A DNA stretch of 64,000 nt. Origin: Klebsiella phage LPKP23. This document shows positions 4,991-5,021 of the stretch, piece by piece (position 1 is the first letter of the stretch; each line of letters starts with the position of its first letter). The position numbers and the translations under genes were made by a program. The notes below the pieces were generated by a model. The model made no database searches. It was not told the DNA's origin and saw only the letters and a program-made list of their open reading frames with translations. The stretch is taken from the sequence record PV112478.1; one strand, 5' to 3'.

Positions 4991-5021
4991 TTTGAATTCC
5001 TTATTGGTTTAGTTAGCATAG

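Follow-up and report, generated by a model that had tools for sequence, protein, structure and literature searches.

The stretch of DNA analysed here (hereafter the window) comprises 64,000 nt of Klebsiella phage LPKP23 (PV112478.1). On its minus strand, just upstream of the SD in seven genes, is a 14-base, G-free leader motif, TAACTAAACCWATA. The copy at 5002-5015 (TAACTAAACCAATA) is followed by an SD (AAGGA) and by the ATG (4990-4988) of an ORFan gene (4625-4990). A hairpin (CCTTCGGTC-GTTT-GACCGAAGG, 5023-5044, minus strand) lies 7 nt upstream of the motif, with CTATGC (5016-5021) in between. This copy reads ...ctatgcTAAC, and the prefix AAA given to it in an earlier note on this DNA is wrong. 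Two more minus-strand copies share with it the lack of a TATA core. The copy at 48972-48985 (CAACTAAACCTATA) precedes an SD (GAGG) and the ATG (48959-48957) of gene B (48492-48959), and 7 nt upstream of it, after gene A, is a hairpin (GGCAGGGG-AATT-CCCCTGCC, 48993-49012, minus strand). The copy at 59669-59682 (TAACTAAACCAGTA) has an ATG 20 nt downstream, which belongs to the gene at 58161-59648. The TAA of this motif is the stop codon of the upstream gene, and there is no hairpin. The earlier note placed these three copies at 5005-5016, 48975-48986 and 59673-59686; they are real and on the minus strand, but the coordinates are 3-4 nt too high. Its statement that they lack a TATA core is correct, as none is found within ~100 nt of any of them. 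The motif was also said to follow the terminator hairpin of the upstream gene. A hairpin is present at two of the three copies, but neither is terminator-like because neither has a U-tract, and the terminator scan does not list them. The tail of the 48993-49012 hairpin, ATTTATA, is not a canonical terminator, and the two hairpins are unrelated in sequence.

The window is 99% identical to KpZh_1, a "Serratia phage" of 299 kb whose host is Klebsiella pneumoniae, and 96% identical to Klebsiella phage KpLz-2_45 (Siatvirus). The coding DNA of vB_KpM_FBKp24 (Maaswegvirus) and vB_KpM_Centimanus is ~78% identical to it. Two ORFs of KpZh_1 are beta′-like RNAP genes; they match PHROGs 2987 and 2986 and contain the catalytic motif DFDGD. 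FBKp24 encodes a chimallin nuclear shell and a PhuZ tubulin (PMC8386662). Because of these RNAP ORFs and the chimallin and PhuZ of FBKp24, we assign the source phage, by its genes, to the phiKZ-type (nucleus-forming, two-RNAP) Klebsiella jumbo phages of ~300 kb. Transcription is presumably carried out by its own virion and non-virion multisubunit RNAPs (PMC7598289). A tblastn with T7 RNAP as the query did not find a T7-like single-subunit RNAP in the genome (best E = 0.89). ARAGORN did not find tRNA genes in the 64-kb window. Rfam gave no matches at the gathering threshold over the window and none at E ≤ 1 for 4900-6700. We did not find transcript maps or 5′-end data for this phage lineage in a literature search.

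Exact copies of TAACTAAACCWATA occur on the minus strand at 5002-5015, 27445-27458 and 49671-49684. Copies with one mismatch are at 30370-30383, 48972-48985 and 59669-59682, and one with two mismatches is at 6490-6503. Every one of the seven ends 10-20 nt before an ATG, with the SD in between. The window contains six matches with ≤1 mismatch where 0.06 are expected from dinucleotide-preserving shuffles (0/100 shuffles reach six), and nine with ≤2 mismatches where 1.05 are expected. The genome-wide test used the complete 299-kb KpZh_1 genome. Here the motif occurs 12 times at ≤2 mismatches, and every good copy is at 59-112 kb, which is the region of the window. A PWM scan of KpZh_1 resulted in seven gene-proximal sites of ≥15.7 bits, all with a start codon 10-20 nt downstream, and two further sites at 16.6 bits that are not gene-proximal. 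The motif is a strongly non-random, start-codon-linked family of seven members. The earlier note had made its case depend on a genome-wide frequency above chance, and this is what the seven sites in KpZh_1 give. The same scan at ≥10 bits returned 73 hits vs 56 in shuffles, i.e., background below the top sites. The degenerate forms that had been counted with the motif (actual positions 3581-3596 and 5817-5829) score <10 bits, where hits are only marginally above shuffles, and are indistinguishable from background.

All gene-proximal copies are confined to one 53-kb stretch. Because only seven genes use it, the motif is not a general translation signal, and we rejected a genome-wide role of this kind. 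The shorter TAACTA/AACTAA is also enriched upstream of genes, which partly reflects stop codons and AT-rich spacers. A three-frame stop function of TAACTAA was rejected, as it provides stops in two frames only. The motif is neither a palindrome nor a repeat. A literature search with AACTAAACC gave unrelated matches only. The resemblance of AACUAAAC to the coronavirus TRS core is a coincidence. The genes behind the motif are ORFans without a Pfam hit, and only one has a PHROG hit. The proteins that they encode are unrelated to each other; therefore, gene duplication did not spread the repeat, and we rejected transport by paralogous genes.

Four of the seven copies (6490, 27445, 30370 and 49671) are the 3′ part of a full cassette of ~95 nt. 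This cassette consists of a (T)7 run, a core of the form (A)TGTATATAT(A/T)GC, N3-4, GTGA, a hairpin, 3-11 nt, TAACTAAACC…, the SD and the ATG. The hairpin has 6-8 bp (GGAAAG..CTTTCC) and is located in the presumed 5′ UTR. All four cassettes are on the minus strand. In P6546 (6490-6559) the (T)7 run is at 6553-6559, the core ATGTATATAT at 6542-6551, GTGA at 6531-6534, the hairpin at 6508-6526 and the motif (TAACTAAACTTAGA) at 6490-6503, followed by the SD and the ATG at 6479. P27502 (27445-27515) has its (T)7 run, the core at 27498-27507, GTGA at 27487-27490, the hairpin at 27462-27482, the motif at 27445-27458, the SD and the ATG at 27430. P30432 (30370-30445) likewise has a (T)7 run, the core ATCTATATAG at 30426-30435, GTGA at 30417-30420, the hairpin at 30394-30413, the motif (TAACTAAACCTATT) at 30370-30383, an SD and the ATG at 30357. 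P49733 (49671-49746) has the (T)7 run, the core at 49729-49738, GTGA at 49718-49721, the hairpin at 49695-49716, the motif at 49671-49684, the SD and the ATG at 49659, which opens gene A (49027-49659). A fifth promoter of the ATGTATATAT subclass, P60133 (60113-60133, core 60124-60133, minus strand), has a leader of its own without hairpin or motif. Across the genome, five promoters make up the GTATATAT subclass, and 4/5 have the hairpin and leader. TAACTAAACCWATA is the leader segment of this small, lineage-specific expression cassette.

The copies without a TATA core belong to the same transcription units. Each is 0.45-1.5 kb downstream of a promoter of the GTATATAT subclass and in the same orientation. 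A terminator scan of the three operons found no canonical terminator between the promoter and its copy. P6546 is followed by the copies at 6490 and, 1.5 kb downstream in the same operon, at 5002. P49733 is followed by those at 49671 and 48972, gene B being the second gene of the operon. P60133 is followed by the copy at 59669, 0.45 kb downstream in its operon; its first gene is without the leader and its second gene has it. The five downstream stretches of 1.6 kb make up 8 kb of 299 kb (2.7% of the genome), and the placement of 3/3 copies within them has a p of ≈2e−5, or ≈0.003 if the comparison is restricted to the 53-kb region. The copies are leader-only versions before internal cistrons in operons of the five subclass promoters. 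Thus, the motif is a property of the transcripts of one promoter subclass. The independence from the TATA core that the earlier note saw in these copies is true of their immediate surroundings, but not of their operons.

The cassette promoters are a five-member subclass of ~25 TATATCAC-N4-(G/T)TGA promoters. The TATAT(C/T)AC-N4-(G/T)TGA family (TATATCAC type) has 26 minus-strand vs 2 plus-strand matches in KpZh_1, where about 13 are expected by chance on both strands together (299 kb). Nearly all of these sites are 40-150 nt upstream of a gene, several come after a T-run terminator, and often a 5′ hairpin follows. Examples on the minus strand of the window are at 4205-4213, 9049-9056, 33878-33886 and 42636-42644. 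An AT-rich motif centred near −10 marks the vRNAP early promoters in every RNAP-encoding jumbo phage (PMC7598289), and phiKZ has 32 such early promoters (PMC10914365). By analogy, we infer that the TATATCAC family is most likely the early (vRNAP) promoter class of the lineage. A more distant relative of 276 kb (59% identity) has a CTATATAAC promoter at the orthologous locus, where the hairpin and the motif are absent. Sigma-70 geometry above chance was not found at the cassettes or at the motif copies.

In KpZh_1, strong enrichment 9-50 nt upstream of genes is seen for the k-mers TCCTATGA(C), CTATGACT and TTCGTATG (e.g., 4 vs 0.08 expected). Sites of the TCCTATGA type in the window are found, e.g., upstream of 9068-11260 (terminase) and of 19779-20423. 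TCCTATGA(C) appears to be a late-type signal similar to the late TATG element of phiKZ (PMC4666361). CTATG (5017-5021) is located 1 nt upstream of the 5002 motif, and TCCTATG precedes the Centimanus orthologue, with CTATG 6 nt upstream of the CTAAAC motif there. A "promoter" annotated in the GenBank record of FBKp24, AATAACCCTCACTAAACAGGAG (94603-94625, minus strand), lies just downstream of a CTATATCAC promoter and shares 14 consecutive bases with the T3 RNAP promoter (TAACCCTCACTAAA), an identity that is unexpected (~0.002 expected by chance). A promoter for a T7/T3-like single-subunit RNAP was rejected on the tblastn result above. The annotation is probably an artefact of the predictor because the genome is without a T7/T3-like RNAP.

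All four cassettes are present at orthologous loci in FBKp24 and Centimanus. We aligned the 10 cassette copies of the window phage, FBKp24 and Centimanus. The 8-mer AACTAAAC is the longest invariant run in this alignment (10/10 copies, two genera) and matches TATAT and GTGA in conservation. Variation is seen in the hairpin loop, in the spacers and at motif positions 10-14. The consensus fold of the alignment showed no compensatory pairs in the hairpin, only G-C/G-U changes, and the hairpin is therefore a predicted RNA structure. AACTAAAC is still 3 nt from the hairpin in the orthologues of the 27445 copy (FBKp24 and Centimanus), but the ATG is 39 nt away. Therefore, the core tracks the promoter-proximal hairpin and not the SD. 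The motif had been described as fused to the RBS. This holds in the phage itself, where the motif is just 5′ of the SD, but not in these orthologues.

Between the genera, conservation is much lower in the TATA-less copies than in those of the cassettes. At 5002 the orthologous sequence is CACCTAAACCAATT in FBKp24, where 7 additional nt precede the SD, and CTAAACTAAT in Centimanus, and the 5023-5044 hairpin is absent in the orthologous spacers of both. The 48972 site reads AACTAATAAGG in Centimanus, and the 59669 motif is not conserved in FBKp24. At the 5002 locus CTAAAC is kept in three lineages, while the flanking spacer has diverged and the hairpin was gained or lost. A pattern scan of IMG/VR for promoter+GTGA+AACTAAAC gave chance singletons only, except for FBKp24 itself.

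The repeated leader/hairpin is a crossover point for gene-cassette loss and allele replacement. One event is found at the P49733 locus (FBKp24 139.2-139.8 kb, Centimanus 215.6-216.9 kb and window 48492-49760). In the window phage and in Centimanus, gene B comes after gene A, which is 39% identical between these two. FBKp24 has lost gene A by a deletion. The gene B of FBKp24 is 98% identical to that of Centimanus. At the junction in FBKp24, TAACTAAACCAATTAAGGAA|tcctaacATG, the gene-A leader as in Centimanus continues into the gene-B leader inside the shared TAAGGAA. A second event is seen against KpLz-2_45, which is ~97% identical to the window over 43 kb except for a patch at 5876-6506. The right edge of this patch is inside the hairpin/leader of the P6546 cassette, and from the hairpin loop onward the KpLz-2_45 allele is FBKp24-like. 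The gene in question (5820-6479) is a hypervariable ORFan whose protein is 57% identical between Siatvirus genomes that are otherwise 96-99% identical. Its KpLz-2_45 allele matches FBKp24 at the 5′ end, so an exchange of alleles between genera took place. An ADFDGD string in the protein is probably due to chance. Recombination of this kind has been described for the PeSL cassettes of T4-type phages (PMC2839356). There are other mosaic or indel patches relative to KpLz-2_45, at 42956-45351, 55306-57081, 31216-31616 and 57381-57796, and none is bounded by the leader motif. They are a tail-protein (receptor-binding) segment, two genes (55390-56522) that are absent in KpLz-2_45, and two divergent ORFan patches.

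The position and composition of the motif suggest a function at the RNA level, as the earlier note had proposed in calling it a 5′-leader element. MFE folds of the presumed 5′ UTRs leave the motif unpaired. Predicted pairing in the −30 to −14 region is lower than in 330 other genes (unpaired 0.66 vs 0.505, p = 0.007), and the region has a G content of 4% vs 14% in those genes. We infer that the element acts on the mRNA and not as DNA. The G-free, unstructured stretch directly 5′ of the SD may be a platform for ribosome loading, i.e., a standby site or enhancer, and in the full cassette it would sit behind a stabilising hairpin at the 5′ end. Our preferred reading, at a probability of roughly 0.4, is that the motif is the unstructured, G-free leader or enhancer of a repeated early expression cassette and doubles as a recombination junction.

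The layout is that of the T7 gene 10 leader (g10-L), with a 5′-terminal stem-loop, an A/U-rich unstructured stretch 5′ of the SD, a short spacer and the AUG. It reportedly carries the epsilon enhancer UUAACUUUA, which Olins and Rangwala are said to have described in 1989. The pentamer UAACU is found in both, and 5/9 epsilon bases match, so the full UUAACUUUA is absent here. The earlier note had suggested a search for complementarity to the host 16S. With E. coli rrsH as the proxy for Klebsiella, the complementarity of the motif to the epsilon target or to any other 16S region is no better than that of 300 shuffles: shuffles with a run at least as long as observed make up 0.55-1.0, and those with an energy at or below that observed 0.50-0.95. 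The predicted SD accessibility does not differ from that of other genes. A switch in which the CU-rich 3′ arm of the hairpin takes part in SD–anti-SD pairing seems unlikely, as by eye only one or two copies could pair well. Seven copies at the SD, G-free and unpaired, speak for the leader element of the earlier note, which has better support than a promoter-level element. The 16S and SD accessibility results do not speak for it. Five observations count against a standby site or enhancer: SD accessibility is no better, 16S complementarity is at chance, the core tracks the hairpin, there are only seven users, and the hairpin is without compensatory changes. An unstructured standby site also needs no invariant 8-mer, and the 8-mer therefore points to a sequence-specific reader.

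Such a reader is the basis of the next explanation, in which the motif is an operator, on RNA or DNA, for a phage-encoded sequence-specific regulator that co-regulates the ATGTATATAT-subclass regulon. We regard this as possible, and as the strongest of the alternatives. The possible modes are translational repression as by RegA or gp32, selective handling of early mRNA, and a roadblock or antitermination signal for the phage RNAP. AACTAAAC is as strict as the promoter core, being invariant over two genera and four paralogous loci, all seven copies are limited to the operons of one promoter subclass, and at one orthologous locus the core follows the hairpin rather than the SD. On the other side, no candidate regulator was identified, the motif is without the palindrome or repeat, and the orthologous TATA-less copies are degenerate (CACCTAAACCAATT, CTAAACTAAT and AACTAATAAGG). 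The hairpins at the TATA-less copies are unrelated, so a boxB-like combination of hairpin and linear signal is not conserved. The translational operators of T4 (RegA, gene 32 leader) are likewise short conserved or unstructured RNA at the initiation region of early genes. RegA sites overlap the AUG and are poorly conserved. The motif here differs from them in being 5′ of the SD.

It is rather doubtful that the motif is a hitch-hiking repeat without a function of its own, i.e., a leader copied at gene insertion and kept alike by gene conversion between cassettes. The two independent recombination events, with breakpoints in leader/hairpin copies, argue for this origin, as do the TATA-less copies, which lie close behind cassettes as leader insertion would give and are far less conserved between genera than the cassette copies. 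There is also a precedent in the PeSL cassettes of T4-type phages (Arbiol et al., 2010, PMC2839356; PMC4122927). Both are repeated intergenic units of ~100 nt in which a promoter is combined with a stem-loop and an SD/start. Copies of both are dispersed between the ORFans of a plastic region and are crossover sites for gene insertion, deletion or replacement; one breakpoint of the two events here is in the hairpin, as for RB49. PeSLs have a strong sigma-70-like early promoter, whereas the promoters here belong to the phage's own TATATCAC family, TATAT(N)(N)C-N4-GTGA, and are presumably read by the virion RNAP. The cassette also differs in number, with only five found, and in its hairpin, which is no GGGG/CCCC terminator and lies in the 5′ UTR behind the presumed start. 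As this hairpin has no U-tract, no premature termination is predicted there. An invariant linear element such as AACTAAAC is not found in PeSLs. A repeat without function would not explain why AACTAAAC is invariant in 10/10 cassette copies while adjacent loop and spacer bases vary, or why CTAAAC at the 5002 locus is kept in three lineages despite the divergence of the spacer. Nor does it account for P60133, where the leader is missing at the first gene and present at the second.

A more far-reaching form of the sequence-specific reader seems improbable to us. AACUAAAC would then be a recognition tag on the subclass transcripts, read by a phage factor that gives the seven-gene regulon a distinct fate. 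Such a factor would, e.g., translate or sequester the first mRNAs selectively, or allow nut-like read-through of intercistronic hairpins by the phage RNAP. If this were true, chimalliviruses would have a cis-acting RNA address code.

RNA processing, which the tag reading only slightly exceeds in likelihood, is unlikely. An endonuclease, either the host RNase E or a phage enzyme, would cut the single-stranded AACUAAAC beside the hairpin and would leave monocistronic mRNAs with a defined 5′ end and an upstream fragment with a hairpin-protected 3′ end. The segment is single-stranded, A-rich and directly 3′ of a hairpin in 6/7 copies, and two copies are between cistrons. In the four cassette copies, however, the motif is already close to the 5′ end of the transcript, and the cut would take away the 5′ hairpin. 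The RNase E consensus is RN↓WUU, and a UU-rich cleavage context of this kind is not present. Neither 59669 nor the orthologues of 5002 in FBKp24 and Centimanus have the hairpin, and the hairpins are too short for RNase III.

Least likely by our estimate, and in agreement with the earlier note that promoter recognition is improbable, is a DNA-level promoter for the nvRNAP that would provide a second, later start just upstream of the SD. AACT-N7-TA is a near-match, with one extra spacer base, to the late AACA-N6-T-A/G(+1) of AR9, and the start that it predicts is 1-2 nt before the SD (PMC7598289). Also in its favour, some AR9 genes have an early and a late promoter in tandem, the motif comes after hairpins in the way that many promoters come after a terminator, and CTATG, the phiKZ-type late core, is close upstream at 5002 and in Centimanus. 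On the other side, a temporal class is expected at dozens of loci, and the seven copies are all in early-type operons, none before structural or RNAP genes, while the late-type signal of the phage appears to be TCCTATGA, motif positions 13-14 (TA) are not conserved between the genera, the geometry of the phiKZ middle element (centred at −24) puts the start on the ATG (PMC4666361), and no single-subunit RNAP is encoded. The signals of phiKZ-type phages are an early AT-rich −10 element, a middle AAanTTACc at −24 and a late TATG at +1, and their 5′-UTR hairpins are associated with premature termination (PMC7598289, PMC4666361, PMC10914365, PMC11512511). The genome here resembles them in its two beta′-like RNAP genes, the ~25-member AT-rich promoter family, the TATG motif upstream of genes and the 5′ hairpins. 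The leader motif shows no match to the early or late consensus and a weak one to the middle consensus (AA..ACC), and in copy number and geometry it fits the three classes poorly.

Outside Pseudomonas phiKZ, very little is known of how nucleus-forming jumbo phages exert post-transcriptional control. For a Klebsiella lineage that is used in phage-therapy research, the present analysis defines a conserved cassette, a seven-gene regulon and a likely early-promoter consensus. The cassette as a preferred crossover for ORFan swaps extends the "modular shuffling" of T4 PeSLs to a phage with its own RNAPs. It is also available as a part that reporter tests and phage engineering could use directly. A specific reader of the invariant 8-mer, if there is one, would add a new layer of regulation.

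Of the four full cassettes, three are in divergent intergenic regions, opposite isolated plus-strand genes. These genes encode a head structural protein (6588-7874), a 189-aa ORF (27542-28111) and a glycosyltransferase (49800-51257). It is possible that the TATATATA core, which is nearly palindromic, and the conserved GAAATGCAG(T)7 also act for the opposite strand. The first gene behind P27502 (27272-27430) is a very hydrophobic ORF of 52 aa (MKESILLLIVALVAMLCFGVSLPMAILYGFVSVLVWYIVSPFALLVSVTYLS), which is probably a small membrane protein.
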